This document shows, piece after piece, positions 873-22,591 of a stretch of 23,981 nucleotides of DNA. Both the position numbers and the translations under genes were made by a program. Source of the DNA: Nitrospirota bacterium. Its GTDB lineage: Bacteria > Nitrospirota > Nitrospiria > Nitrospirales > Nitrospiraceae. Location: assembly GCA_963703955.1 (NCBI GenBank), contig CAVPGK010000022.1, positions 1 through 23,981 on the forward strand. The letters are read 5' to 3'. Position 1 is the first letter of the stretch; the number at the start of each line of letters is the position of its first letter. The notes under the pieces are model-generated. The model had not been told where the DNA came from, did not search any database, and was given only the letters and a program-made list of their open reading frames with translations.

Positions 873-972
873 GAGGGTGGTGGCCTGACTCACTTCAACT
901 GCGCGCATCGAGCGAGCACATTCTGATCGTGCGCGGTCTGCGAGCACGGAAGTCAGTCAGGCCACCACCCTC
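873..972. repeat. Type II palindromic intergenic element, empty form
   Basis: 24-bp inverted arms 873-896 GAGGGTGGTGGCCTGACTCACTTC and 949-972 (1 mismatch). The core matches 15569-15604 plus 15695-15706 in reverse complement. Confidence 0.9.
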
Positions 973-5021: not shown

Positions 5022-5708
5022 ATGAACAACTCGGTGAAGTCACTCAGGGCCTCGCTAAAACGGTACTTTCTGACGGGGTTACTGGTCATAACCCCGATCT
5101 GGGGAACAGTGCTCATCCTGAAAACGCTTTTTCTGACTGTGGACAGCATTCTCGGCAATATGCTGTCACAAATCGTCCCTCCTGGATATTACGTTCCTGG
5201 ACTCGGCATTGTCACCCTCGTGCTCTTGGTGTTCGCCACGGGATTATTTACGGCGAACTTCATCGGGGGTCAGATCGTCAAGCTCTGGGAAGAACTTTTG
5301 CATCGGGTCCCGATTGTCCGTGGCATCTATTCGACACTGAAGTCAATGACGGATATCCTTTCCTTCAAGGAGAAGGAACGGTACAACCGGGTCGTCCTGA
5401 TTCAGTTTCCCAAGAACGGGCATTATTGCTTGGCCTTCGTCACCGGGGTCACTCACGGGGAAATACAAGAGATTACGAGCGACCCACTGCTGAATGTCTA
5501 CGTGCCGACGTCGCCGAATCCCACGTCCGGTTACTTCTTACTGGTGCCGGAAAAAGAGGTCGTGCCGTTAGAGATCAGCGTTGAAGAGGCTATGAAACTG
5601 ATCGTGTCAGGAGGCCTCTACACTCCGCCACAGTCCGGGTCTGGCTCTGCTCAGCCACGAGCGCCCGTCGCGAAAGCCCGGCCGGATCTGGAGGTCCCGA
5701 TCGCATAA
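5022..5708 (+). CDS. DUF502 family membrane protein
   Basis: LKRYFLTGLLVITPIWGT, RVPIVRGIYSTLK, VYVPTSPNPTSGYFLLVP, EEAMKLIVSGG. The start was moved from 4716 (which overlaps tmk) to ATG 5022, just after the predicted promoter. Confidence 0.9.
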   Translation: MNNSVKSLRASLKRYFLTGLLVITPIWGTVLILKTLFLTVDSILGNMLSQIVPPGYYVPGLGIVTLVLLVFATGLFTANFIGGQIVKLWEELLHRVPIVRGIYSTLKSMTDILSFKEKERYNRVVLIQFPKNGHYCLAFVTGVTHGEIQEITSDPLLNVYVPTSPNPTSGYFLLVPEKEVVPLEISVEEAMKLIVSGGLYTPPQSGSGSAQPRAPVAKARPDLEVPIA

Positions 5709-5714
5709 CTTTCT

Positions 5715-5975
5715 GCAGGATGCTGAAAAAGGTCATCAACTTCGTTCTCGGCTCGCAAGAATCCTCAACGGAGGACCCGGCCGCCTCACCGGCTCGGCGG
5801 CGCGCACAAACGTGGTGCTCCTTATTCGTCGCACCGTGCGCCCCTTGAGGGTACGCTCCGGGGTCCGAGCTTCCTGCGGCCTTGTTGGACGGGAATGGGC
5901 GCGTCCCCCAGGTAAGAGAGCTGGTCTTGGCCAGCTCGGGGCCGGGCGGGTGTAAGTGGCCTTTTTGAGCATCCT
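5715..5975 (+). repeat. Type I palindromic element A, carrying a 62-bp cassette and a hairpin module
   Basis: Inverted ends AGGATGCTGAAAAAGGTCA (5717-5735) and TGGCCTTTTTGAGCATCCT (5957-5975), 17/19 match. The backbone is colinear with 9636-9758. Confidence 0.9.
5918..5952 (+). repeat. Hairpin module copy 1
   Basis: GAGCTGG-TCTTGG-CCAGCTC-GGGGCCGGGCGGGTG. Confidence 0.9.
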
Positions 5976-6008
5976 ATCGGGAACAATTTCTTTCCATACT
6001 GAAATCAG

Positions 6009-7802
6009 ATGAAAGGTCTTGGCGCAATTGTGATGGCGGCCGGGCTTGGGAAGCGGATGCGATCCAAGCTCGCGAAAGTCTTACATCCGGTCGCTGGACG
6101 TCCGATGGTGCTCTATGCCGTCGATCTGGCTGAACGGATTGTCGACGAAGGTATTGCTGTGGTGGTCGGTCACCAAGCGGACAAGGTCCGGGCGATACTT
6201 GAGGCGCACCAGGCCGCGAAGCCTGAGGCGGCTGCCAGCCGGGGGGCTGCGAAGCGAGCCAAAGGGATGACTGCACACGTCACCAATTCGGGGTTCAGGG
6301 CGCTGTCCGTTCTGATCGCTGACCAGGCGCAGCAACTGGGAACCGGCCACGCAGTGATGCAGGCCCGAGCGGCGTTCCTTCGAGCCCGCGGAGCGGCGGC
6401 CTCCGTCTATGTCATCCTGAACGGCGACACGCCGTTGCTGACGGAGTCGACGATCCAGGAACTGCTCCGGACTCACGAAACCGAGAAGGCGACCGTCACG
6501 ATCTTGACGGCCGTCCTGGACGATCCGTCGGGCTACGGGAGGATCGTGCGCCACGGGAAGGGGCGCGTCTTGGCGCGCCTGGGGCGGGCGGGTGAAACTA
6601 GCAGGGGGCGCGTCCCTCGGGAAGGAGCGCGTCTTGGCGTGCTTGGGGCGGGCGGGTGCAATAATCCAGAGAGCCTGTCTCGGCAGGCTCAGGGCGGGCG
6701 GGCGCGACGGCGTCTGGAGAAGGCGGGTGAAGCGGAAAAATCGTACGGAGACCGGCCAGTCCTCCGCATTGTAGAGGATCGAGATGCGACGGATGCTCAG
6801 TCGGCGCTGCGAGAAATCAATGTGGGGACGTATGTCGTAGACGGCCCGTTCTTGTTCGAGGCGCTGGATACGCTTCAGCCTCAGAATGCGCAGCAGGAAT
6901 ATTATTTGACCGATATCGTGAAGCTTGCGGTAGAGCGCGGCCTCAAGGTAGCCGCGTTGATCGCGAAAAATGCAGACGAGGTGATGGGGATCAATTCGCG
7001 CCAGCAGCTCGCGGCAGCGGAACGGGTCATGCGGAAGCGGATCTGTGAGCATTGGATGGAGGAAGGGGTCACACTCCGCGATCCTGCTACCGCGTCGATC
7101 GATGCCGACGTCCGGATCGGACAAGATTCGGTCTTGCATCCACACGTCACACTTGAAGGACGGACGAGAATCGGGCAGGACTGCGTGATTCGATCGCACT
7201 GTAGGATCACGGATAGCGTGTTGGGCGATCGAGTCGTTGTCCAGGACTGCTGCGTGGTTCGCGAGGCCAAGCTCGAAGATGACTCGATGGTCGGACCGTT
7301 TGCGCATCTGAGGCCGGGCGCAATCATTCGTCGGGCGGCCAAGGTCGGCAATTTCGTCGAGATGAAAAAAGCCGATTTAGGTGAAGGGTCCAAAGCCAAC
7401 CATCTGACCTATCTGGGCGACACTAAGATCGGAAAAGGTGTCAATATCGGGGCCGGCACCATCACGTGCAACTACGATGGGTTTCACAAGTTCGAAACTG
7501 TGATCGAAGATGACGTGTTCATTGGCAGCGATACACAGTTGATTGCCCCGGTCCGGATCGGACAGGGCGCGGTCGTAGCAGCAGGTTCTTCAGTGACCAA
7601 TGACGTGCCGGCTGACGCGCTCGCCATTGCCCGTGCGGTCCAGGTGAATCGCGAGGGCTGGGCCGAGCGGCGGCGGGCGTTGCTGACCACCGGCGGCCAG
7701 GCTCAGACCACACCCATCAGGCGAGAAGCAAACACCATGGCGTCGAGCCTCTCGCCTCGCGGCAAGGGAAGTGCGGCGAAGCAAAGGAAGGTGGGAAGGT
7801 AA
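6009..7802 (+). CDS. glmU: Bifunctional UDP-GlcNAc pyrophosphorylase / glucosamine-1-phosphate N-acetyltransferase, enlarged by in-frame insertions
   Basis: AAGLGKRMRSKLAKVLH, QLGTGHAV, GDTPL, GYGRIVR, EYYLTD, hexapeptide repeats, GPFAHLRP, GNFVEMK, HLTYLGD, GAGTITCNYDG. 597 aa against about 450-460 aa in typical orthologues. Confidence 0.97.
   Translation: MKGLGAIVMAAGLGKRMRSKLAKVLHPVAGRPMVLYAVDLAERIVDEGIAVVVGHQADKVRAILEAHQAAKPEAAASRGAAKRAKGMTAHVTNSGFRALSVLIADQAQQLGTGHAVMQARAAFLRARGAAASVYVILNGDTPLLTESTIQELLRTHETEKATVTILTAVLDDPSGYGRIVRHGKGRVLARLGRAGETSRGRVPREGARLGVLGAGGCNNPESLSRQAQGGRARRRLEKAGEAEKSYGDRPVLRIVEDRDATDAQSALREINVGTYVVDGPFLFEALDTLQPQNAQQEYYLTDIVKLAVERGLKVAALIAKNADEVMGINSRQQLAAAERVMRKRICEHWMEEGVTLRDPATASIDADVRIGQDSVLHPHVTLEGRTRIGQDCVIRSHCRITDSVLGDRVVVQDCCVVREAKLEDDSMVGPFAHLRPGAIIRRAAKVGNFVEMKKADLGEGSKANHLTYLGDTKIGKGVNIGAGTITCNYDGFHKFETVIEDDVFIGSDTQLIAPVRIGQGAVVAAGSSVTNDVPADALAIARAVQVNREGWAERRRALLTTGGQAQTTPIRREANTMASSLSPRGKGSAAKQRKVGR
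6554..6732 (+). repeat. Cluster of hairpin module copies 2-4 plus fragments inside glmU
   Basis: Stem-loops at 6561-6580, 6625-6644 and 6671-6690, each followed by the G-rich tail. Head fragment at 6606-6614 and orphan tail at 6722-6732. Confidence 0.92.
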
Positions 7803-7804
7803 CC

Positions 7805-9634
7805 ATGTGTGGCATTGTCGGCTACGTCGGCGACCAGGATGCTGTCCCCATTCTCCTGAATGGTCTCAAACGACTGGAATATCGGGGGTACGATTCCGCG
7901 GGAATCGCCATCGTGCATCAGGGCAAGATCGAGGTGCGGCGCAGCGTCGGAAAATTGGCGAATCTGGAAAAGATGCTGAGCGGCAATGGCCTCAAGGGGA
8001 CCACCGGAATCGGCCATACCCGTTGGGCCACCCACGGTAAACCATCGGAGCAGAACGCGCATCCCCATCGGTCTGGGGGATACGTGCTGGTCCACAACGG
8101 CATCATCGAGAACTTCTTGCCGCTCAAGCAACAGCTCCAGAAAGAGGGCTATCGCTTCGAATCTGAAACCGACACCGAGGTCGTAGCCCATCTTATCGCG
8201 CGTGCACACAAACCAGGGCGGACGCTGGCGGACGCCGTCCTGGCGGCTACACAGGAGATCCGCGGCAGCTATGCCATTGCCGCCGTCTGTGAAGGCGAGC
8301 CGGATACGTTGGTGGCGGCCCGATCGGGCTGCCCGCTCGTGATCGGCCGAAACGGCAAGGCAACCGTGGTGGCGTCCGATGTCATGGCCATATTGGCGCA
8401 CACGCGGGATGTGACGTATCTCGAAGAAGGTGACTTGGCTGTGGTGACCTTGGACGAGGTCCGGATGATGGATGCCAAAGGGCATCCGATTACTCGACCA
8501 TCGACCCGCATTACCTGGGATGCGGAGGCGGCTGAAAAGAGCGGGTACCCGCATTTCATGTTGAAGGAGATTCACGAACAGCCGCAGACGATCCTGGATA
8601 CGATGCGCGGCCGGTACACCTTTGAAACCGGCGCGGCCGATCTTCCTGATATCGGCCTGACCGCAGATCAATTGGCGGCGGCGGGGAAGATCTGGATTGT
8701 GGCCTGCGGCACATCCTGGCATGCAGGTTTGGTGGGGAAATATTTGATTGAGGAGATGGTCAAGGCCCCAGTCCAGGTGGATATCGCCTCGGAATTTCGC
8801 TATCGCGATCCACTGGTTCAAAAAGATGATTTGTTTCTGACCATCTCTCAGTCCGGCGAAACGGCGGATACGCTGGCAGCGGCGCGAGAGGCCAAGGTGA
8901 AGGGAGCGAAGGTCCTGTCGATTGTGAATGTCGTCGGCAGTACGTTGGCCCGCGAATCGGACGGCGTGCTCTATACCCACTGCGGTCCTGAGATCGGGGT
9001 GGCGTCGACGAAGGCCTTCACCGGGCAACTGACGGCCCTCTATCTCCTTTCACTGCATCTGGGGCGTGTGCGAGGTCTGCTCAATGCCAATGACGGACGG
9101 ATCTGGCTCGAACGCTTTGTGTCACTGCCGAGCCGTGTTGAACACATTCTAAAACGCGAGGCGGAGCTCGTGGCCATTGCAAAGCGATACTACACCAAAC
9201 GGAATTTCCTGTATTTGGGGCGCGGCATCAACTATCCCATCGCCCTGGAAGGCGCGCTCAAACTGAAAGAGATCTCGTATATTCATGCGGAAGGGTATGC
9301 CGCCGGGGAGATGAAGCACGGGCCGATTGCGCTGATCGACAAAGACATGCCGGTCGTGGTATTAGCCCCCCGCGACCGCCTGTATGAAAAGACCGTCAGC
9401 AACCTCATGGAAGTCAAAGCCCGTAAGGCGCCGGTGATCGCCTTTGTCAGCGAGGGTGAACGAGATCTTGGCAAGGCAGCCGACGCCGTGTTTACGATCC
9501 CAGACGTGCCGGCGTTGCTCACACCGATCTTGTTCACGGTCGCGCTGCAACTGCTGGCCTATCACGTTGCCGTGCTGCGGGGGACGGATGTGGATCAGCC
9601 GAGGAATCTCGCCAAAAGCGTCACGGTGGAATAG
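7805..9634 (+). CDS. glmS: Glutamine--fructose-6-phosphate aminotransferase (isomerizing)
   Basis: MCGIVG, EYRGYDSAG, GHTRWATHG, SQSGETADT, C-terminal DQPRNLAKSVTVE. Confidence 0.99.
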   Translation: MCGIVGYVGDQDAVPILLNGLKRLEYRGYDSAGIAIVHQGKIEVRRSVGKLANLEKMLSGNGLKGTTGIGHTRWATHGKPSEQNAHPHRSGGYVLVHNGIIENFLPLKQQLQKEGYRFESETDTEVVAHLIARAHKPGRTLADAVLAATQEIRGSYAIAAVCEGEPDTLVAARSGCPLVIGRNGKATVVASDVMAILAHTRDVTYLEEGDLAVVTLDEVRMMDAKGHPITRPSTRITWDAEAAEKSGYPHFMLKEIHEQPQTILDTMRGRYTFETGAADLPDIGLTADQLAAAGKIWIVACGTSWHAGLVGKYLIEEMVKAPVQVDIASEFRYRDPLVQKDDLFLTISQSGETADTLAAAREAKVKGAKVLSIVNVVGSTLARESDGVLYTHCGPEIGVASTKAFTGQLTALYLLSLHLGRVRGLLNANDGRIWLERFVSLPSRVEHILKREAELVAIAKRYYTKRNFLYLGRGINYPIALEGALKLKEISYIHAEGYAAGEMKHGPIALIDKDMPVVVLAPRDRLYEKTVSNLMEVKARKAPVIAFVSEGERDLGKAADAVFTIPDVPALLTPILFTVALQLLAYHVAVLRGTDVDQPRNLAKSVTVE

Positions 9635-9758
9635 CAGGATGCTGAAAAAGGTCCCCAACTTCGTTCTCGCTCGGCCGAAATCCTCACGTACCCCCTGAGG
9701 GTACGCTCCGGTGTTCGCCCTCACTGCGGCCTTGTTGGATGCCCTTTTTGAGCATCCT
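9632..9758 (+). repeat. Type I palindromic element B, minimal empty backbone
   Basis: TAGCAGGATGCTGAAAAAGG (9632-9651) ... CCTTTTTGAGCATCCT (9743-9758). The leading TAG is the glmS stop codon. Confidence 0.9.
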
Positions 9759-9842
9759 TGAAAGTATCTGATCGTTAAGAGTTACCAATTCAGATGGTTT
9801 TGGTATTCGACTTTTGAAGGTCTAAACCAGTAAACTAAATAT

Positions 9843-10136
9843 ATGAACATCACCAAGCAAGAAGTCGAGCGTGTGGCCAAGCTGGCTCGGTTGGAGATCA
9901 CGGAGGACGAGAAGGAAGCCTTCAGCCGACAATTGAGCAGCATTCTGACCTACATCGAGCAGCTCAAAGGCATCGAGACGACAGGCATCGAGCCGACTGC
10001 TACGGTGCTGGACCAGACCAATGTGTTTCGTGACGATGTCGTTCGCCCGAGCCTTTCGGTCGAGCGGGCACTGGCGAACGCGCCGGAAGCCGACGAGGGA
10101 TATTTGAGAGTCCCGAAAATACTTGATAATCGGTAA
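9843..10136 (+). CDS. gatC: Asp-tRNA(Asn)/Glu-tRNA(Gln) amidotransferase subunit C
   Basis: ITKQEVERVAKLARL, ILTYIEQL, NVFRDD, ALANAP, YLRVPKIL. Upstream of gatA. Confidence 0.96.
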   Translation: MNITKQEVERVAKLARLEITEDEKEAFSRQLSSILTYIEQLKGIETTGIEPTATVLDQTNVFRDDVVRPSLSVERALANAPEADEGYLRVPKILDNR

Positions 10137-10213
10137 ACGTCACACGTACTCGGGAAGATGGTTGTCTCTTTCATTTGACCAATCAGGATAACGAATAGCG
10201 GGGTTTCGAAGTC

Positions 10214-10573
10214 ATGCTACGACAAATGCTCCGGGCGAAGATTCATCGAGCCACTGTGACCGAAGCCTGCCTGGAATACGAAGGAAGCATTACGGTTGAT
10301 GAAGATCTCCTTGATGCTGCGGGTATCTTGCCTTATGAGCTGGTGGTGATCTCGAACCTCAACAACGGTGAACGCTTTGCGACCTATGCCATGGCGGGAA
10401 AGCGTGGAGGTGGTGACATTGTTCTGAACGGTCCCACGGCGCGCAAGGCGGTGGTGGGAGATAAGGTCATCATCTTCTGTTACGAGTTTTATGCTGAAGA
10501 CGAGGCCAAACGCCATCGGCCGAAGATCATTTTCGTCGATGATAAGAACCGCATTGCTCCCAAACCGCAATAA
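10214..10573 (+). CDS. panD: Aspartate 1-decarboxylase proenzyme
   Basis: KIHRATVT, Gly24-Ser25 self-cleavage site (YEGSIT), Arg54 and Tyr58 (GERFATY), LNGPTAR. Confidence 0.96.
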   Translation: MLRQMLRAKIHRATVTEACLEYEGSITVDEDLLDAAGILPYELVVISNLNNGERFATYAMAGKRGGGDIVLNGPTARKAVVGDKVIIFCYEFYAEDEAKRHRPKIIFVDDKNRIAPKPQ

Positions 10574-10618
10574 CTGCCGACATCCTGCCATGGCCGACTG
10601 AGCGCGCCCGTCATTTCT

Positions 10619-12085
10619 ATGTCGATCCATAAACTCACTCTCCAGGAGCTTCAAGGTAAATTCACCAGAGCCGAGGTGACCGCCCGAGAGATTGTGCACG
10701 AGTATTTTCTACGTATTAATCAAGTCGAGCCTAAGGTCAAGGCGTACATTACCATGTCGAAGAAGCCCGCCTTGGCCCAGGCCGATGCGCTGGATGAGAA
10801 ACTCAAAGGGTGGCGCAAGACCCTCCCGCTAACGGGTATGCCGCTGGCAATCAAGGACAACATTTGCACGGAAGGGGTCCTGACGACCTGTGGGTCGAGG
10901 ATGTTAGGCACATTCGTTCCACCGTATGAGGCCACGGTCATCACTCGTTTGCGCAATCAAGGCTATCTCCTGCTGGGGAAAACCAACCTCGACGAATTCG
11001 CTATGGGGTCCTCGACCGAGAACTCGGCCTTTGGACCGACCAGGAACCCCTGGAACGTCAAATACGTCCCCGGTGGGTCGAGCGGGGGCTCCGCCGCCGC
11101 GGTTGCGGCCGACGAATGCGTAGCGGCGTTGGGGTCGGATACCGGAGGTTCTATCCGTCAACCAGCGGCGTACTGCGGTGTGGTCGGACTCAAGCCGACC
11201 TATGGACGCGTATCTCGTTACGGACTGGTGGCCTTCGCCTCGTCGCTGGATCAGATAGGGCCGATCGCGAAAACGGTAACCGATGCAGCCTTGCTGCTCA
11301 ATGTGATCGCCGGGCACGATTCGCTTGATTCCACTTCCGCCGATGTGCCGGTTCCCGACTATCTGCGGGCGTTGAAGAAGAAAGACCTTAAGAAGGTTCG
11401 AATCGGGTTGCCCAAAGAGTATTTTGCCGAAGGGCTCGATCCGGAAGTGAACCAAGCGGTCCGCGCGGCCGTGGAGGTTCTGAAAGACCTCGGCGGACAG
11501 ATCGTGGATGTGTCGCTACCCACCACAGGCGCGGCGGTGGCCACGTACTATCTGATTGCCACCGCCGAAGCCAGCTCGAACCTGTCCCGCTACGACGGGG
11601 TGAAATATGGGCTCCGTTCCAAACAGGCCAAAGACCTCCTCGAAATGTATATGAAGACGCGGCAGGAGGGATTCGGACCGGAAGTCAAACGACGGATTAT
11701 GCTGGGCACCTATGCGCTCAGCGCCGGCTATTATGACGCGTATTACGGGAAGGCCCAGGCGGTGCGGACGCTGATTCGCCGTGAATTCGCCACGGCGTTT
11801 CAGGAAGTGGATCTGATAGTGACCCCGGTGACGCCCACACCGGCGTTCAAGTTGGGCGAGCGGATCCAGGATCCTCTTCAGATGTATCTCTCCGATATTT
11901 ACACGATTTCGGTCAATCTCGCCGGGATTCCCGCGATCTCCGTGCCCTGCGGATTCAGCAAGGAGGGGTTACCGATCGGCCTTCAGATCCTAGGACGGCC
12001 GTTTGAGGAGGAGGCTGTACTTCGTGGTGCGCATGCTTACGAGCAAGCCACCGACTGGCGGCTCAAACGGCCGGTGACTCGATAG
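10619..12085 (+). CDS. gatA: Asp-tRNA(Asn)/Glu-tRNA(Gln) amidotransferase subunit A
   Basis: Amidase signature [63 protein letters not shown]. Confidence 0.98.
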
Positions 12086-12153
12086 GCGTTCCAACTCGGT
12101 CCGCAGATGACCGACGAGCCTGAGGAAAACGAGAAACAAAGGGAGGTGTGAAT

Positions 12154-12561
12154 ATGATGATGGAAATCGCCGCGATGATGGCCGCAATCGCCTTCGTCGT
12201 GCTGGTCGTGTACCTGGTCATCATGTTGGTGCAGATCAAAAAGACGGCCATCGAATCCGAACGCCTTCTCAGGCAACTCAACAGCGAGTTGCCGTCTGTG
12301 CTCAAAGAACTTCGTCTCGCCGGCGAACAGGTGAATGCGCTCGCGATCGAAGCAAGGGATGGCGTCGAACACGCCTCCGTGTTCCTGCACGCTGTAGGAG
12401 AGATGGGGGAAACAGTGCAACGGGTACACGGTCTGGTACGTGGTCAAAGCGGAAGTGTCATCTCCAAAGTCGTCAGTGTGATCGCCGGAGTCAAAGCAGC
12501 CTCCTCAGTAGTAAAAGGCCGTTTCTCCAGAGGCAAGAGTGACCCCAATGGGGCGGGTTGA
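12154..12561 (+). CDS. DUF948 (YoxC/YtxG-like) membrane-anchored coiled-coil protein
   Basis: N-terminal transmembrane segment AAIAFVVLVVYLVIML followed by a helical region. GGAGG at 12142-12146 precedes ATG 12154. Close to a YtxH-domain gene. Confidence 0.75.
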   Translation: MMMEIAAMMAAIAFVVLVVYLVIMLVQIKKTAIESERLLRQLNSELPSVLKELRLAGEQVNALAIEARDGVEHASVFLHAVGEMGETVQRVHGLVRGQSGSVISKVVSVIAGVKAASSVVKGRFSRGKSDPNGAG

Positions 12562-12705
12562 ACCCCGGCCGCGTTGAATGAGCTATCCTCCACACCCCCC
12601 TAGTAATTCCTTACTCGCTGATTGACTCCTGAAAATTCCTGAGCCATAACCCTGTTTGGGGCGGAGTGAGTCGTTCCGGAGTGACCTTCGTTCCTCAAGG
12701 TGGCT

Positions 12706-12891
12706 ATGGCGTCACGGATCGAAGATTACGGGCTCATCGGCGATACGCAGACCGCCGCTTTGGTGGCGCGGGACGGTTCAATCGATTGGCTATGCCTACC
12801 GCGTTTTGACTCGGGCGCCTGCTTTGCGGCGCTTCTGGGTACGCCGCAGCACGGCCGCTGGCGACTGGCTTCGTGGCTAAGGAAGGGGTAG
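12706..12891 (+). pseudogene. Truncated N-terminus of a glycoside hydrolase family 15 (glucoamylase/trehalase-like) protein
   Basis: [42 protein letters not shown] is the typical GH15 N-terminus. It stops after about 61 aa, whereas full proteins are about 600 aa, and no continuation was seen. Confidence 0.85.
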
Positions 12892-12973
12892 CGGTATAGC
12901 GGTATAAAGGGTAACGGGATAAAGTGGGCAGAGCTGAATCTTACCCCTCTACCCGCATTTTCCGCGTCGGTCT

Positions 12974-13582
12974 ATGAATCCGCTTGATGAGTACAGAAAG
13001 AAACGGTCCTTCACAAAAACGACGGAACCGCCTCCGACGAAAAAGATTTCGGAATCGGGACGCATCTTCGTTGTTCAGAAACATTCCGCGACCCGACTTC
13101 ACTACGACTTCCGGCTTGAAGAGGGCGGAGTGCTGAAGTCGTGGGCGGTGCCCAAGGGGCCGTCGCTCGATCCGGCGGTCAAGAGGCTGGCCATGGCGGT
13201 TGAGGATCATCCAGTCGATTACGCGGATTTTGAAGGCGTCATTCCTGAGGGCGAGTACGGGGGCGGGACGGTCATGGTGTGGGATCACGGCACCTATCGA
13301 GCGGAAGGGATGGACGACATCGCCGCCGCGCTGGGCAGGGGTGAATTGAAATTTAAGTTGAACGGGCGGAAGCTCAAAGGGTCATGGGTGCTGGTACGCA
13401 TAAGAGATCGTCAGTGGTTGTTGATCAAGCACCGAGACAGCTATGCGTCGACGGAGGAAGTGACTCTGTCTGAGCCGACCTCCGTCGTCAGCGGACGGAT
13501 CCTCTCCGAGATAGCGGCCGATGGGGGCGGCGACGTTGAGAAAGCCAAGACCGGAGACCCACCGAGAAGCTCCTCTCGATAA
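12974..13582 (+). CDS. Stand-alone LigD 3'-phosphoesterase (LigD_N) domain protein
   Basis: [79 protein letters not shown]. No ligase or polymerase domain follows. Confidence 0.92.
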
Positions 13583-13662
13583 GAGTCTGAACCGCGCTCG
13601 GTAAAGCGGCCTGACGTACGCTCCCTCCTCTCGTCGTCGGCAATCGCAGCCCAATCCCGCCG

Positions 13663-13691
13663 TTGACAGATGACGGCATATCGAATACTCT
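13663..13691 (+). promoter_or_regulatory. Predicted sigma70 promoter for the YtxH gene and gatB
   Basis: Perfect -35 TTGACA (13663-13668), 17-bp spacer, TACTCT (13686-13691). Confidence 0.65.
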
Positions 13692-13765
13692 CAGCCGAAA
13701 ACACTTTGTTTGCCGTACGTTTGCCTGTTTTCCGAACGGCCGGATCGAGAAAGGGAGGTGGGGCC

Positions 13766-14098
13766 ATGGAGAGAGATGAACGAGACCAAGGCGGGATTTC
13801 GGCGAGCACAGTCCTGATGGCTTTTCTTGGAGGGGCGGCGGTCGGGATCGTTGCGGCGCTCTTGCTCGCACCGCAACCGGGTGAGAAGTCGCGGGAACAA
13901 CTGAGAAAGTATGCGAGAAAAACAGGAGACAATTTGCGAGATCTGGCGGAAAAGGCCGAAGACACATGGGAATCGGCGGTTGAGAAAGGCCGCCAGTTCG
14001 TGGACGAACAAAAGAGCACCTTGAGCGAAGCGATCGAAGCTGGTCGCGAGGCGATGCGCCGGGAGCGTGATCGCCAGGCGAGTGAAAAAGAGAGCTGA
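13766..14098 (+). CDS. YtxH domain-containing protein
   Basis: [36 protein letters not shown] before ATG 13766. The stop overlaps the gatB start (TGATG). Confidence 0.88.
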
Positions 14099-15540
14099 TG
14101 TCATACGAAGTCGTCATCGGAGTGGAGGTGCATGCGCAGCTGCTGACGCAGTCTAAGATGTTCTGCGCATGCGGGACGGCGTTCGGCCTTCCGGCCAATA
14201 CACAAACGTGCCCGATCTGCCTAGGTATGCCGGGCACCCTGCCCGTGATCAACCGGCAGGCCGTGGAAATGGCGATAAAGACCGGCCTCGCGCTCAACTG
14301 CACCATCAGGTCCGTGAACCGATTTGCTCGGAAAAACTATTTTTACCCCGATCTCCCCAAGGGCTATCAGATCTCGCAGTACGAAGCGCCGATCTGCGAG
14401 AATGGTTGGATCGACGTCATTGCCGGCGGAATGCCGAAGCGCATGCGCATCCGTCGCGCCCATCTTGAAGAGGATGCCGGAAAGAACGTTCATGAGGAGG
14501 GAGCCGGGACGGGCCAGGCGATAAGTGACGTGGATTTGAACCGTGCGGGGACGCCACTCCTGGAAATCGTCACTGAACCCGATATGCGTTCATCCGATGA
14601 GGTCGTCGCGTATCTGAAGACGCTGCGGGACATCCTCGTCTACCTGGACGTATGCGACGGCAACATGGAAGAAGGAAGCCTGCGCTGTGAGCCGAACCTC
14701 TCGCTCAGGCCGATCGGTCAGAAAGAATTCGGTACGAAGGTGGAGTTGAAGAATATTAATTCGTTCAGGTTCGTTCAAGACGCCGTTGAGTATGAAATCG
14801 CGCGCCAGACGAGGGTGCTCACCGAGGGCGGGAGGATCAGTCAGGAAACGCGATTGTGGGACGTCAAGAAAGGGGTGACGTCGGTCATGCGCAGCAAAGA
14901 AGAGGCGCATGATTACCGATACTTCCCAGACCCTGACTTGGTTCCGCTCAGCATCTCCCAGGACCGTATCGAAGAAGTGCGCAAGGCCTTGCCGGAGCTC
15001 CCGGCTGCCCGGCACAAGCGATTTGTCGCAGACTATGGGTTGCCTGAGTATGACGCGGGCGTCTTAACGGCATCCAGGCCTCTCGCCGACTATTTTGAAG
15101 CCTGCGTCAGGCTATTGGATCAGCCGAAAACAGTGAGCAATTGGGTGATGGGCGAACTGCTGCGGGAGCTGAACAACAGCGGCACGGCCGTGGCCGCATC
15201 TCCAGTCGGCCCTGAGCGACTCGTGAGCCTGCTTAAGTTGGTGGAAAACGGGACGATCAGTCTCAAGGTCGCCCGTGAAATCTTCCCGGACCTCTACGCC
15301 AGCGGCAAGACGCCGGGGCAGATCGTGCAAGAGCGTGGGCTGACGCAGGTGTCGGACGAAGGGTCGTTGGAGAAGATCATCGATGACATCATGACGAAGA
15401 ATCCGGCCCAGGTTGCGCAGTACCGAGCCGGCAAAGAGCAGGTGCTAGGCTTTTTCGTCGGGCAAGTGATGAGGGGGTCGGGGGGAAAGGCGAATCCGGG
15501 TAAGGTAAATGAGTTGCTGAAGAAGAAATTATCCGGATGA
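14098..15540 (+). CDS. gatB: Asp-tRNA(Asn)/Glu-tRNA(Gln) amidotransferase subunit B
   Basis: [61 protein letters not shown]. Confidence 0.99.
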
Positions 15541-15547
15541 AGAGGGT

Positions 15548-15725
15548 GAGTGGTGGCACTGACTCCAGGTGCTCGCAGAGCGCGCACGATAAGAATGTGC
15601 TCGCCTTGGGAGAGGGCTCGTCTCGGCGAGCCCAGGGTGGGCGGGTGAAGAAAAAGGGGCGCGTCTTGGCGCGCCTGGGGCGGGTGGGTGAAATATGCGC
15701 GCAGTTGGAGTCAGTTCCACCACTC
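15548..15725. repeat. Type II palindromic element, filled form with hairpin module copies 5 and 6
   Basis: 20-bp arms GAGTGGTGGCACTGACTCCA (15548-15567) and 15706-15725 (1 mismatch). The core matches 873-972 reversed, with a 90-bp insert (15605-15694) holding stems 15614-15633 and 15657-15676. Confidence 0.92.
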
Positions 15726-15756
15726 CCAGTAAGCCCGGATTTTTCAGGTCGCATAG

Positions 15757-17064
<1,308 letters not shown>

Positions 17065-17170
17065 CACCAGCGCAGGTCCTGTCGACGGCCCCTCAGCGCC
17101 ATCCGCAATTGTGCCAATGGTAGTTTCTGAATAGAGAGAAGAAGTTGAGACTTGTGAGAAGGAGGAGAGG

Positions 17171-17530
17171 ATGACGAGACGGAACCGTAGCCATGGTAGC
17201 GTAAGACGACGCCGGCGAGTCTCTTGGGGGTTGATAGTCGTCGTCGGAGGGCTATTGGGCGCTATTCTGGTTACGTCGCTGTTTTTTGACGAGATGGGTG
17301 TGCGCAAGTATGTGATGATGCTCCAGCACGCACGGCAGTTGGAAAAGGATGTTCGGGATCTGGAGCGCCTGAACGCAGAGCTTCGAACGGATATTTATCG
17401 GATTCAGTATGATCCGGTCCGGATGGAGGAATTAGCTCGTGAGCGCCTGGGCTATGTGAAGAAGGGCGATACAGTCTACCAAATCGTGACGGACCAGGAG
17501 AACCACGAGAAACAAGAGAAGGGGAGATGA
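17171..17530 (+). CDS. ftsB: Septum formation initiator (FtsB/DivIC family)
   Basis: Basic N-terminus, one transmembrane helix, a coiled coil, and MEELARERLGYVKKGDTVYQ. Directly after eno. Confidence 0.85.
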   Translation: MTRRNRSHGSVRRRRRVSWGLIVVVGGLLGAILVTSLFFDEMGVRKYVMMLQHARQLEKDVRDLERLNAELRTDIYRIQYDPVRMEELARERLGYVKKGDTVYQIVTDQENHEKQEKGR

Positions 17531-17620
17531 GCCTGCTCGGGGGGGCACTCCGGGTGAAAGGGCTGGTCTTGGCCAGCTCGGGGCCGGACGGGTGACATAG
17601 TTGCTGGGGCGGGTGGGTGA
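17529..17620 (+). repeat. Hairpin module copy 7 with a flanking head fragment and orphan tail, no backbone
   Basis: GGGCTGG-TCTTGG-CCAGCTC-GGGGCCGGACGGGTG (17560-17594). Head GAGCCTGCTCGG at 17529-17540, tail GGGGCGGGTGGGTG at 17606-17619. Confidence 0.85.
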
Positions 17621-17622
17621 AA

Positions 17623-18510
17623 ATGAAATCCGGTACCGTCGCAATCATCGGACGTCCCAATGTGGGAAAGTCCACGCTTTTGAATGCGCTGCTCAAAGAA
17701 AAAATTGCCATCGTATCCGACAAGCCCCAGACGACGCGTATGCGTATCCTGGGAGTCGTCCATCGGCCTGACGCCCAGATCGTCTACTTCGATACTCCAG
17801 GACTGCACCAGCCTCAACACCAACTCAATAAGCGCATGGTCCGGACGGCCTTGGAGACCATGCGTGAAGTCGACCTGGTGTACGTGATGATCGAGGCCGT
17901 CCCTCCGTCTCCCGGGCCAGGTGATCGGGTGGTGGTTCAGCAAGTCGGCGAGGCGATTCGGAAGAGCGGCCAACCGGCGTTCTTGCTCATCAACAAGGTC
18001 GATCTGGTGAATAAGGCAAGGGTGTTGCCGTTGATTGAGGCGACCCGTTCTTTGCTGGAATGGACGGAAGTGGTTCCCTTGTCGGCCAAGACCGGCATCA
18101 ACGTTGAGCGACTGCTGGATCTGACGGTGAAGGTGTTGCCCGAAGGCGAGGCGCAATATGGAGAGGAGGTCATCACGGATCAGCCGATGCGGGTGCTCGC
18201 GGCGGAGATTATCCGTGAAAAGATCCTCCAGAAGGCCAGGGAAGAAGTGCCGTATTCTGTTGCCGTTGAGATCGACGGATTTGTCGAAGAAGGCAATCTG
18301 GCCCGCGTGTCTGCTACCATCCTGGTCGAAAAGGAGTCGCATAAAGCGATTCTGATCGGGAAACATGGAGACCGACTCAAGGCGGTCGGGACGTATGCGC
18401 GAATCGAGATGGAACGGCTATTCGACATGAAGGTGTTCTTGGAGCTCTGGGTGAAAGTCCGAGCCGATTGGCGTGAGAACGAGCAGGTGCTGACGGCACT
18501 GGGGTACTAG
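17623..18510 (+). CDS. era: GTPase Era
   Basis: GRPNVGKST, KPQTTR, DTPG, NKVD, KH domain ILIGKHG, LELWVKVRADW. Alternative GTG start at 17617. Confidence 0.98.
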   Translation: MKSGTVAIIGRPNVGKSTLLNALLKEKIAIVSDKPQTTRMRILGVVHRPDAQIVYFDTPGLHQPQHQLNKRMVRTALETMREVDLVYVMIEAVPPSPGPGDRVVVQQVGEAIRKSGQPAFLLINKVDLVNKARVLPLIEATRSLLEWTEVVPLSAKTGINVERLLDLTVKVLPEGEAQYGEEVITDQPMRVLAAEIIREKILQKAREEVPYSVAVEIDGFVEEGNLARVSATILVEKESHKAILIGKHGDRLKAVGTYARIEMERLFDMKVFLELWVKVRADWRENEQVLTALGY

Positions 18511-18900
18511 CAGGCTGTTGAAAAACTCGCGCGGTGGCTCGGTATGAACGTCGTGAGCAATACGACACGCGATACCATACCATCCTCCAGGATGTTCAAA
18601 AAGGCTCATTCCACCCGCCGACCCCAGGCGCGCCGAGACGCGCCCCTTCCCGTACAAGGCCGCAGCGAGGCGCACGGTGGGACGAATAAGGAGCACCACG
18701 CTTGTGCGCGCCGCCGAGTTGGTGAGGCGGCGGTGTCTTCAAGCCGAAGCGTAGTTGTCTTCACCCGCCCTGCCCGAGCGCGCCGAGACGCGCTCTTTCC
18801 CGAGACGGTACGTTGAGGCTTGAAAATAAAGCATGCGACTATCCAGCGAAGCTGGACATAGGAGATACGAAGCTGGAGGCCTTTTTCAACCTCCTGCTAG
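18507..18900 (-). mobile_element. Type I element C: MITE-like composite bounded by CTAG, carrying the 62-bp cassette and hairpin copies 8 and 9
   Basis: Outer inverted ends CTAGCAGGCTGTTGAAAAA (18507-18525) and TTTTTCAACCTCCTGCTAG (18882-18900), 17/19 match. Inner end AGGATGTTCAAAAAGGC (18589-18605). Hairpin modules at 18612-18652 and 18762-18802, cassette at 18669-18730. Mobility is inferred. Confidence 0.8.
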
Positions 18901-21014: not shown

Positions 21015-21515
21015 ATGGAGAAAATTGGTGAATCCGTACGACCGCTGCTTGTCGGTATGACCGGCGGCCTGGTTGCCGGCATACTCGTCCTGGACATGAT
21101 GCTCCCTCTGGGGCTGGCAGGAATGCTCTATGTCGCCCTCGCGATGATTTCATTATGGTCGCCGAAGCGAACCTTTACTCTCACCGTAGCGGGCGCCTGT
21201 ACGGCGTTGATCCTCTTTGATTACCATCACGCTCCCCGCGAGAGTGAGACGGTGCTGGCCATCGCCAACCGCGGCCTGGCCTTGCTGGCGATTTGGGTCA
21301 CGGCGATTCTGTCTCTCTTACGCACTCGCGACCAGGAGGATATCCAGATTCTCCGGAGCCTACTGCCCTTGTGCGCGACCTGCAAAAAGATACGAGATCC
21401 GAGGGGAGTCTGGCATCAGCTCGAACAATACCTCAAAGACAACTCGCAAATGGAATTTTCCCGCAGTCTTTGTCCGGAATGCCGGAAAAAATGGGTGCCC
21501 GGAGCGACGGCCTAG
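21015..21515 (+). CDS. Small membrane protein with a C-terminal CxxCKKIRD...CPxC motif
   Basis: GGAGG at 21005-21009 before ATG 21015. About four hydrophobic segments, then LLPLCATCKKIRDPRGVWHQLEQYL...FSRSLCPEC. The ORF-track start at 20673 overlaps the opposite-strand gene. Confidence 0.8.
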   Translation: MEKIGESVRPLLVGMTGGLVAGILVLDMMLPLGLAGMLYVALAMISLWSPKRTFTLTVAGACTALILFDYHHAPRESETVLAIANRGLALLAIWVTAILSLLRTRDQEDIQILRSLLPLCATCKKIRDPRGVWHQLEQYLKDNSQMEFSRSLCPECRKKWVPGATA

Positions 21516-22591
21516 TGTAGTGCGTCTAACGCTTCTTTACATTGGGCGACTTTGGTCAAGATATTCCCCACCGAGGCGGTCCACACGAATACCCGGGGGT
21601 TCTGATTGTGATTGTCCAGGTACTGTGTGATCGCAGCGATCAATTCCCGCACATGCTGGAAGCTGCCGCGCCGGATGCGTTTGTCGGTGAGATCGCGGAA
21701 CCAGCGCTCGACCAGGTTCAGCCAGGAACTGGAGGTTGGGATAAAGTGCAGATGGAACCGCGGATGCCGTTGGAGCCAGGCTTTCACCCGTGGGTGCTTG
21801 TGCGTCCCGTAATTGTCCACGATCAGATGCAGGTCGAGCTCGGACGGGGTTTCGGCCTCGATCTTTGCGAGGAAGCGAATGAACTCCTGATGCCGATGCC
21901 GCGGCATGCAGTCGCCGATCACCTTGCCGTCGAGCATGCTCAGGGCTGCAAACAAGGTGGTCGTGCCATGGCGTTTGTAATCGTGCGTCATCGTGCCACA
22001 ACGGCCCTTCTTCAACGGAAGGCCCGGCTGGGTGCGGTCGAGGGCTTGGATCTGACTTTTCTCGTCGACGCACAGGACCAGGGACTTGTCCGGGGGATTG
22101 AGATAGAGCCCCACGACATCGTAGAGCTTCTCGACAAACTGCTTGTCGCGGCTGAGCTTGAAGGTCTTGATGAGATGGGGCTTGAGGTTGTGTCGCTTCC
22201 AGATCCGCCGCACCGTCGCTTCGCTGAGGCCTTGGGCCTTGGCCATACTCCGGGTGCTCCAGTGGGTCGCAGCCGGTGGGGTCGTGTGCAGTGTCGCCTC
22301 GACGACGGCCCGCACTTTGCGTTCGGGGATGCGTGGCAGACGACCGGGACGTGGCGCATCCTTTTCGAACCCTGCCAAGCGCAGAGCCAGAAACCGCTCC
22401 CGCCAAAGCTGCACCGTGGGTCTGGAGATGGTCAATGTTCGGGCGATTCCCTGATTGCTGACGCCATCGGCCGCCAACTGGACGATCCGCGCTCGCTGCA
22501 CCAGGCGAAAGGGGACACGCCGACCCTGGGCCCATGTCCTCAGGGCCGAGCGCTCCATAGGGGACAGCTGGATAGGGGCCGCGGTTCTCAT
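21512..22591 (-). CDS. IS630-family DDE transposase
   Basis: N-terminal HTH, HWSTRSMA, VLCVDEKSQIQAL, IVDNYGTHK, SSWLNLVERWF, with 35 residues between the second D and the E. Confidence 0.96.
   Translation of the reverse strand: MRTAAPIQLSPMERSALRTWAQGRRVPFRLVQRARIVQLAADGVSNQGIARTLTISRPTVQLWRERFLALRLAGFEKDAPRPGRLPRIPERKVRAVVEATLHTTPPAATHWSTRSMAKAQGLSEATVRRIWKRHNLKPHLIKTFKLSRDKQFVEKLYDVVGLYLNPPDKSLVLCVDEKSQIQALDRTQPGLPLKKGRCGTMTHDYKRHGTTTLFAALSMLDGKVIGDCMPRHRHQEFIRFLAKIEAETPSELDLHLIVDNYGTHKHPRVKAWLQRHPRFHLHFIPTSSSWLNLVERWFRDLTDKRIRRGSFQHVRELIAAITQYLDNHNQNPRVFVWTASVGNILTKVAQCKEALDALH

Follow-up and report, generated by a model that had tools for sequence, protein, structure and literature searches.

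A short hairpin module of Nitrospirales, inserted at many unrelated sites about 45 nt at a time and without target duplication

Results

The module and its copies in the window

The window analysed here, the whole stretch of 23,981 nt of contig CAVPGK010000022.1 (Nitrospirota bacterium), contains glmU, the gap between ftsB and era, host repeats that we call type I and type II, and copies of a short module lying in each of these kinds of place (Table 1). The unit, 45 nt long, opens with GGG and three or four mostly A bases; a 7-bp stem follows, closed by the loop TCTYGG, and after it come the tail RGGG-Y-GGG-Y-GGGTG and a stretch rich in A. The stem sequence is partly free, and the loop is fixed. 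The first G tract is often lost: it is absent from 12 of 77 genome copies, including those with stems at 5918, 6671 and 15657, and from several lineages. The module itself has neither terminal inverted repeats nor a target duplication.

An earlier note on this DNA had listed nine copies, and we re-found exactly these, with the same stems, loops, strands and start positions. A pattern blind to the stem gave precisely nine matches in the window against 0.02 expected, a number that none of 100 shuffles reached. With a covariance model made from 42 copies, the nine window copies among them, these nine score 47-64 bits and everything else in the window 11 bits or less. The copy at 17560, taken earlier for a bare intergenic one, sits instead inside a decayed outer copy, and because the 5918 and 6625/6671 copies are nested as well, the inventory of the window comes to nine whole and three split copies. 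As for Rfam, a check that the earlier note had proposed, the module is not in it: the window has no matches, and a search with 5700-6800 returned two hits at chance level (E 1.8 and 2.6).

Table 1. Host repeats, modules and genes in the window, in order of position
Feature	Positions	Strand	Basis or remark
Empty type II host	897..948	-	between hairpin arms 873-896 and 949-972
Type I host MITE, modules at site A	5716..5975	+	terminal inverted repeats common to IS5-type element elsewhere in the genome
Split outer copy, 5' half	5891..5905	+	sequence; GGG tract, 5' stem arm and first loop bases, 3' half lost
Module, stem 5918-5937	5911..5952	+	inside split outer copy; first G tract down to GG
glmU	6009..7802	+	open across the insertion
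Module 1 in glmU, stem 6561-6580	6555..6594	+	
Split outer copy in glmU, 5' half	6604..6614	+	sequence
Module in glmU, stem 6625-6644	6619..6658	+	inside outer copy
Module in glmU, stem 6671-6690	6667..6704	+	tandem after 6625 copy (46-nt period); without first G tract
Outer copy in glmU, decayed 3' arm and tail	6709..6729	+	extra 45-nt unit here in one related-strain contig
Empty type I host	9635..9758	+	unfilled reference
Type II host, two modules inside	15569..15704	+	structured core of about 52 nt in the loop of a copy-specific hairpin
Module, stem 15614-15633	15608..15647	+	
Module, stem 15657-15676	15651..15690	+	tandem (43-nt period); without first G tract
Nested double between ftsB and era	17539..17619	+	17560 module inside a decayed outer copy (17539-17550 and 17601-17619)
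Module, stem 17560-17579	17552..17594	+	
Type I host MITE, modules at sites A and B	18589..18896	-	
Module at type I site A, stem start 18645	18612..18651	-	
Module at type I site B, stem start 18795	18762..18801	-	

Stem covariation, strand asymmetry and G tracts

The four dinucleotides reported earlier at stem positions 5-6 are present in the nine copies, and the covarying fold proposed from them holds in a larger set beyond the window. Its 78 distinct stems carry eight compensated dinucleotides; position 5 is paired in 65 of 78 and position 6 in 69 (26 and 38 when shuffled; 0/5000), and the loop stays constant. The covariation score, computed without phylogeny correction, is 0.561 against 0.151 shuffled and at most 0.15 when slid. 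Template switches that correct hairpins are also able to yield stem covariation.

The claim that all non-Watson-Crick pairs are G-T is true of the nine copies (5 of 5 pairs, 4 of them terminal) but fails genome-wide: in 77 copies picked blind to the stem, the 385 internal pairs comprise 343 Watson-Crick, 16 G-T, 11 A-C and 15 others, and the excess of G-T over A-C is not significant (p=0.44). Strand specificity had been read from the G-T pairs; the grounds for it are now that the T-G pair next to the loop is invariant, that the G tail is one-sided and that orientation is biased, as described below. Folding z-scores of the single strand lie between -1.0 and -2.3, which is modest. Four G3 tracts are found in 51/77 copies, in the order G3 tract, hairpin loop and three G3 tracts with linkers of 1-2 nt; the tracts are conserved and the linkers vary between copies. 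The module contributes 79 of the 167 G3 triple motifs of the genome, and a quadruplex appears in the predicted minimum-energy fold of 7/77 copies.

Host repeats, nesting and the 45-nt gain

The type I host is a MITE, whose terminal repeat and YTAG flanks are common to a DUF772/DDE element of the same genome; at one locus (L163) the identical 15-nt terminal repeat stands at both ends of a 366-aa DUF772 + DDE_Tnp_1 gene. Since this host is the MITE of an IS5-type element, many module copies are passengers and not independent insertions. Near-identical filled MITEs recur in genome G484.

We observed a near-fixed gain of 45 nt per copy without target duplication, which is new here. Filled host sites, which are not independent events, are longer by 45 or 46 nt in 64/91 cases and by 44 to 47 nt in 80/91. 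The gain upon self-nesting is 45 nt in 19/22 cases, and of 13 close pairs, in which neighbouring stems often differ, 9 repeat with a period of 45. The same length recurs whether the module sits in a tandem array, in another copy of itself, in either of two host repeats or in a gene; five host sites are among the unrelated, non-homologous places that show it. As for target duplication, a 4-mer is common to 19/59 flank pairs against 17.3 when shuffled, that is, none was detected. Neighbours within 150 nt are head-to-tail in 15 cases and inverted in 2. Insertion into other repeats and into genes, as the earlier note had it, is supported by the nested, host-repeat, GlmU and MiaB cases.

The fixed 45-nt gain, the self-nesting and the MITE nature of the type I host are absent from that note.

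Two cases show that the module is mobile. In a filled/empty pair of orthologous loci, 81% identical, L111 has a single copy and L116 a nested one (+45). In glmU, a single contig from a related strain is longer by a further 45-nt unit, seen among the contigs listed, which came from 4 of 24 runs. The junction of the nested long form is identical in many genomes. Host bases beside the junctions are usually not preserved (judged by eye; a scripted count matched only 2 sites), which a clean cut-and-join would not predict.

Genes carrying or adjoining the module

Insertions of the module keep reading frames. In GlmU, 72 aa separate GYGRIVR from the VEDRDA motif, against 8-18 aa in 21 relatives; relative to the best-scoring of these, with 12 aa, the loop has gained 60 aa, or 180 nt, equal to four units. 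The turn in question aligns near residue 148 of solved GlmU. A metagenome pattern search for the glmU junction gave no match. MiaB is longer by 30 aa because of a nested double. Between ftsB and era the outer tail of the double lies directly before the era start codon, and the module is absent from this gap in all six relatives that cover it. Relatives of ftsB reached only 57-61% identity. At L111/L116 the end of the tail supplies the apparent start codon of the next gene; genome-wide, the ATG of a long ORF follows the tail in only 2/77 copies.

Orientation and flanks

Of 44 co-directional intergenic loci, 36 have the G-rich strand as sense strand. Replication was dropped as the main orientation signal, since where transcription conflicts with replication (whose strand was inferred crudely) orientation follows transcription in 10 cases against 2. 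Empty hosts are biased towards sense in the same way (18:4 and 14:2), so module orientation may reflect selection.

Three bases upstream of the first G tract there is a C in 128/180 copies, and six bases beyond the tail a G in 119/180 (background 0.29); outside recognised hosts the figures are 32/48 and 27/48. On either strand a plausible cut would then lie four bases after a C, which is the preference stated for bacterial topoisomerase I in PMC3467081; we treat this match to a type IA topoisomerase only as a lead. The right end of the G-rich strand lacks a C four bases before the cut, and a simple reciprocal exchange therefore does not fit. Both bases may belong to the element itself or be a legacy of shared composite ancestors. 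The 5' flank shows only a loose C-C-H-Y consensus and no fixed target tetranucleotide. The loop was considered as an internal guide for the flanks, whose consensus is complementary to it, and was rejected, since loop base 4 does not covary with the flank (p=0.88).

Distribution

This genome has about 80-100 copies. Among the genomes searched the module is confined to the order Nitrospirales, with loop and tail constant through three families and with copy numbers from 0 to >70 within one family. One prophage-like contig among IMG/VR carries it; plasmids and GenBank phages gave no match.

Discussion

How the module may move

We propose, as a reading that is quite possibly right, that the module is a 45-nt non-coding selfish element whose folded G-rich strand is recognised by loop and tail and moved in trans by a nick-and-rejoin enzyme. 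The G-rich strand would fold once single-stranded, the stem merely having to pair; the folded strand would then be excised and joined to DNA at another single-stranded site, such as a hairpin loop or the non-template strand of transcribed DNA, by an enzyme acting in trans. Later spread would come from hitch-hiking on the MITE and, probably, from gene conversion between repeats.

As the earlier note had stated, no mobilising enzyme is encoded in the window. Beyond it, the 234 ORFs beside 99 module loci include one IS630 and one rve protein, and 59 of the 112 ORFs beside 20 clusters of this genome gave one IS3 and one imuB-dnaE2 pair. IS110 is present in this genome at loci without the module. 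GIY-YIG matches were mostly of UvrC size and none was bracketed by modules, 2/37 loci having one weak match each; Y2_Tnp matched in 0/5 genomes, a figure without weight because its control matched nowhere either. Ku is missing from 3/5 genomes tested and LigD polymerase is present in 2/5; with each in only two of the five, capture by end joining was dropped. The genomes used are not complete (reported values are 77-99%), and an enzyme gene may have been lost from them. Because no dedicated transposase tracks the element, it is more probable that a housekeeping enzyme, or one without a Pfam signature, moves it. A type IA topoisomerase is the lead candidate, although a doubtful one. The fullest form of the proposal, which we regard as unlikely, is a transposase-free element: a folded strand of 45 nt that the host's type IA topoisomerase would move at transcribed single-stranded sites, with selection on a population of stems keeping loop and G tail constant, perhaps as a quadruplex-duplex fold, and adding 15-residue peptides to core enzymes. 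On this view other nested Nitrospirales modules (the type II core and a 66-nt module) may use the same route.

The module might instead be a REP-like or IS200/IS605-like non-autonomous element whose HUH/Y1 transposase visits genomes and is then lost, a reading to which we also give a low probability. Single-stranded Y1 chemistry, as set out in PMC8266576, fits the hairpin with its fixed irregularity, the constant length, the missing target duplication and the head-to-tail junctions; REPs outlasting the loss of their gene are described in PMC6006769, and 72 of 121 family genomes have Y1 genes. Four of the 7 highest-copy genomes, however, lack Y1, and no Y1_Tnp was found in this one (82% complete); the module was at none of the 38 Y1 loci fetched (30 of 162 matches plus 8 more), and there is no Y1 among the 234 neighbouring ORFs. 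The HUH/Y1 lead of the earlier note thus gained no support. Its observation that a classical REP foot is lacking did, the canonical foot occurring in 1/77 copies on the G strand and 0/77 on the C strand, and the rarity of inverted neighbours also speaks against this reading.

An RNA route, in which a structured RNA is cut from transcripts, reverse-transcribed and patched into breaks or hairpin tips, would account for the sense orientation, and tandem neighbours with unlike stems and mixed junction bases might resemble template jumping. We think it improbable: a reverse transcriptase (RVT_1) is missing from 5 of the 7 highest-copy genomes, the sole one of this genome is a broken DGR enzyme, empty hosts are equally sense-biased, and a fixed gain of 45 nt would be unusual for retro-insertion. 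G484 has one degenerate module copy about 1.4 kb from a reverse transcriptase; the other such loci fetched had no module. A DGR or retron product was considered and rejected, as there is no template-RT pairing and the variation is not adenine-specific on one strand, which also weighs against the RNA route at large.

There is likewise only a small chance that no dedicated chemistry is involved, and that a few old insertions multiplied through MITE transposition, gene conversion and slippage, together with template switching during replication where hairpins and G tracts occur, the stems covarying because template switches repair palindromes. The transposase of the type I host in the genome, the filled MITEs of G484, the common junction of the nested long form and internal mismatches that look like strand-symmetric decay all agree with this, but it leaves unexplained the equal gain at five host sites, the tandem arrays, GlmU and MiaB, as well as the flank signature in free copies and the loop and tail fixed across three families. 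A host regulatory element under selection (ribosome-binding site, RNA stabiliser or quadruplex-duplex switch) would suit the sense bias, the number and conservation of the G tracts and the start codon at L111/L116, but is very improbable given the range of copy number within one family, the copies inside unrelated proteins and MITEs, the scarcity of start codons after tails and of predicted quadruplex folds, the lineages without the first G tract and the relatives with an empty ftsB-era gap.

Known elements of similar kind

The closest known kinds are cyanobacterial SDRs and Rickettsia RPEs. SDRs, reportedly described from Nostoc punctiforme by Elhai and colleagues in 2008 (Genome Res 18:1484) as SDR1-8, are said to be very small (21-27 nt) and lineage-confined, to show compensatory stem changes, to lie inside mini-transposons, heptamer repeats and copies of themselves, and to be moved by an unknown enzyme. 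By this definition the module resembles them in its tiny size, compensatory structure and nesting in itself and in mini-transposons; it differs from the SDRs, as so defined, in its 45 nt, fixed TCTYGG loop, three-tract G tail and occurrence in Nitrospirales. With IS200/IS605 non-autonomous elements it shares fixed length and the lack of target duplication, but it has no fixed guide-set target tetranucleotide, and target bases are usually not preserved. The type I host is an IS5-type MITE, whereas the module has no such ends of its own. RPEs, as presented in PMC3733652, insert in frame into working proteins, for which the GlmU turn is the module's case; sequence and size differ, and the module has a covarying stem, a fixed loop and the habit of nesting in itself and in MITEs. 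It is like REP/REPIN-RAYT sequences, as portrayed in PMC3733652, PMC8266576 and PMC6006769, in being a short GC-rich hairpin with many copies, mostly intergenic and sometimes in frame in genes, but lacks a GT[AG]G, CGTC or CnGA foot, inverted doublets and a flanked Y1 gene, and has a long G tail and head-to-tail and self-nested arrays. In 51/77 copies the order of its G tracts is that of the stem-loop-containing quadruplex sequences of PMC4477648, although its long loop of about 24 nt exceeds the 20-nt screen given there, the first tract is often lost and folding is here predicted.

How tiny palindromic elements move (SDRs, RPEs, CGTC-tagged REPs) is an old question, because most have no partner transposase. 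The module offers a short, exactly sized substrate on which nature has already run a mutational scan (78 stems with one loop); it also has a flank signature, and Nitrospirales genomes supply many copies. Candidate enzymes can therefore be tested directly on oligonucleotides. Given that no dedicated transposase was found, an ordinary host enzyme may move it. In nitrifying bacteria the module adds units of 15 residues to core proteins such as GlmU and MiaB, and it can mislead gene calling.

A covarying stem under a fixed loop

All nine copies of the module reported for the window were recovered with the same positions, stems and loops, and a search that leaves the stem unspecified picks out the same nine, against 0.02 expected. 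The genome of which the window is contig C22 (3.3 Mb, 82% complete; relatives labelled Nitrospiraceae or Nitrospirales) holds 69 copies in a strict scan and 77 in a stem-blind one; a profile search gave 98 matches at E ≤0.1, and matches at E ≤0.5 form 74 clusters. Density reaches 37.5 copies per 100 kb in the window against ~2.3 genome-wide (five clusters, P ~2e-4). The window is abundant in core operons. The copy at 17560, which the earlier note took for bare intergenic, is actually nested within a split outer copy, as are two others in the window.

Covariation of the stem is upheld in a larger set of 202 copies, with 78 distinct stems and eight compensated dinucleotides. Because the pattern that selects outside copies fixes stem positions 1, 3, 4 and 7, only positions 2, 5 and 6 offer a fair test. 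Position 5 is paired in 65 and position 6 in 69 of the 78 distinct stems (shuffled means 26 and 38; matched in 0 of 5000 shuffles), and 42 aligned copies show both-side changes in 62 cells against 18.4 shuffled, with a covariation score of 0.561 where slid partners reach at most 0.15; both tests ignore descent. The proposal that mismatches are always G-T on the G-rich strand fails genome-wide, where stems contain 16 G-T and 11 A-C pairs.

The TCTYGG loop can be closed by T-G and C-G pairs under a two-base tip, as a type of mini-loop; its variable base lies in that tip, and the T-G pair comes from single-strand folding. G tracts are kept and linkers vary. Four G3 tracts occur in 51 of the 77 copies in this genome but the first tract is absent in several lineages, so a quadruplex is possible but not required.

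Insertion in steps of 45 nt

Measured against the empty host consensus, filled sites gain 45-46 nt in 64 of 91 cases and 44-47 nt in 80, counts in which the anchor at type I site A is imprecise and the filled sites are not independent. Modules nested in their own loop add 45 nt in 19/22, and close tandem pairs have a period of 45 in 9/13. In GlmU, one turn has 72 aa here and 8-18 aa in 21/29 relatives with motifs located; the excess over the best-scoring relative (12 aa) is 180 nt, or four units, and four copies are present there. Elsewhere, in-gene modules add 30 aa to MiaB of another genome, ~29 aa to a phosphotransferase-like protein and ~28 aa to a permease. No target duplication was found at module flanks, and host bases at the junction, judged by eye, are often replaced while length is kept.

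Presence does differ between related copies: of two orthologous loci, L111 has a single module and L116 the same module with a second nested inside. A strain ~96% identical carries an extra 45-nt unit at 6722-6730 on one contig (depth 6.8), and the ftsB-era module is absent in all six relatives covering that gap. Loci L079 (in genome G485), L082, L090, L115 and L121 are included in the nesting, tandem, stem-pairing, covariation, gain and flank tallies, and genomes G405, G435, G452 and G485, marked unpublished, in the enzyme-family tallies; no main claim depends solely on any of these. At L111 and L116 the module tail supplies a GGAGG and, apparently, the next gene's start codon, and was possibly exapted as a ribosome-binding site.

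Hosts and passenger copies

In this genome the type I backbone and an IS5-type element have a terminal repeat and flanks in common. The IS5-type element of loci L163 and L165 has terminal repeats that correspond to those of the type I MITE and is the likely mobiliser of the latter. Near-identical filled MITEs recur in genome G484, so module copy number exceeds the number of primary insertions. A primary mechanism besides MITE carriage is still needed for the distinct site classes. In type I these are A, B and a third, reversed one, and in type II two opposite ones; the rest are the module's own loop and own tail, tandem positions, heptamer tracts and unique genes. Modules in heptamer tracts (L076, L093, L158, L084, L103) have one stem type in common, so that stem type follows host type. 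The type II core, sitting in hairpin loops with copy-specific arms, is an inserting module too; its empty copies are sense-biased 14:2.

Coordinates of features in the window and its genome (G000)
Location	Feature	Remarks
Window 873-972, 15548-15725	Type II core (~52 nt)	In hairpin loops; arms differ among copies
Window 5775-5840, 18669-18740	Second small module (~66 nt)	In type I MITEs; repeatedly self-nested in G484
Window 12706-12890	Short ORF, cut off	Resembles gene start; presumably glycoside hydrolase 15
Window 12974-13582	Stand-alone LigD phosphoesterase-domain ORF	Full-length LigD-sized gene and Ku elsewhere in genome
Window 21512-22591	IS630-type transposase	No relation to module
C6:154877-158104	IS5-type element (L163)	
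C10:126444-130049	Diversity-generating retroelement by layout (L031)	Presumably sulfatase-modifying-factor-type target gene, avd-like ORF, RT, template repeat
C10:213881-213988	Three-copy module cluster	Antisense, 3' end of imuB-like gene, directly before dnaE2-like gene

Distribution and relation to known repeats

The strict pattern matches 29 of 401 genomes of the phylum, namely this genome, 26/75 of its family and 2/2 of a sister family, and none of the remaining 323. In a scan of 185,579 species genomes it picked out 99 stretches; among the 80 matches listed, 79 carry the label Nitrospirota and one has no label. A covariance-model search, of the kind proposed in the earlier note, located the module in 35 of 80 chosen genomes (by family of the order 26/31, 5/5, 2/9 and 0/2, plus this genome and G484) and in 0 of the 31 outside Nitrospirales. 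Seven genomes have at least 45 copies, the highest counts being lower bounds near 75. A prophage-like IMG/VR contig (L161) also has copies, which lie between its head genes.

No Rfam family matched. The module fails REP tests and works like SDRs and RPEs, the former as Elhai reportedly described them in 2008. No description of it in Nitrospira, and none of a similar repeat, was found in the literature searched, most subscription journals being outside its scope. The passages considered from PMC3733652 do not mention Nitrospira, and PMC12306157 gives one table row of palindrome counts; the comparison also drew on PMC2700814, PMC3184786, PMC3116915, PMC6513891, PMC6006769, PMC4477648 and PMC8266576, and the supplementary repeat alignments of PMC2700814 and PMC3733652 could contain related motifs.

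Orientation, flanks and mechanism

At 36/44 co-directional intergenic loci, on crude gene calls, the sense strand is the G-rich one; where the inferred replication strand disagrees, orientation tracks transcription 10 to 2, and empty hosts are biased in the same direction as filled ones. Of 180 distinct copies, 128 have C as the third base upstream of the first G tract; downstream of the tail, the third base is A in 166 and the sixth is G in 119. Every host class shows this signature, with the exception of the downstream G in self-nests. It also appears in a set of 48 copies that lie outside recognised hosts, some misclassified nests among them. Contigs C8 and C20 assemble one 8-kb region twice at 97% identity, probably from two strains; right behind the module tail they show three substitutions in seven bases, where divergence in the surroundings is ~1.5%; this may be a mutation hot spot.

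The module is a covarying hairpin with fixed loop and tail that adds 45 nt without duplication, is tolerated in frame and hitch-hikes on MITEs. Our preferred reading, held tentatively, is that it would fold as a single strand, that loop and tail would be what is recognised, and that a trans-acting enzyme would nick and rejoin it. Putative cuts, one on the G strand just after its first G and one on the opposite strand between +2 and +3, would each have C at -4, a base that bacterial topoisomerase I prefers there according to PMC3467081; the signature could equally belong to the module itself. Topoisomerase IA as the nick-and-rejoin enzyme is a lead, and an unlikely one.

The HUH/Y1 enzyme first considered was not found in 4/7 high-copy genomes (those 77-95% complete), and Ku is present in 2/5 genomes tested. 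None of the Y1, RT, IS110 and GIY-YIG loci retrieved has modules on both sides, and no gene of these families adjoins the 99 module loci screened. That a Y1 formerly moved the module and was since lost is compatible with absence from genomes today, and we consider it similarly unlikely. Still less probable is an RNA route; RT was not found in 5/7 high-copy genomes, and that of L031 is disrupted by frameshifts and a stop. Spread without any enzyme is given equally little weight. A host function is highly improbable.

The module is a real, order-wide and apparently undescribed mobile element, belonging among small palindromic insertion elements, a kind already known. Three traits make the way such elements move directly testable here: an insertion step of exactly 45 nt, a loop that stays fixed while the stems are free to vary, and the absence of any transposase that tracks the module.
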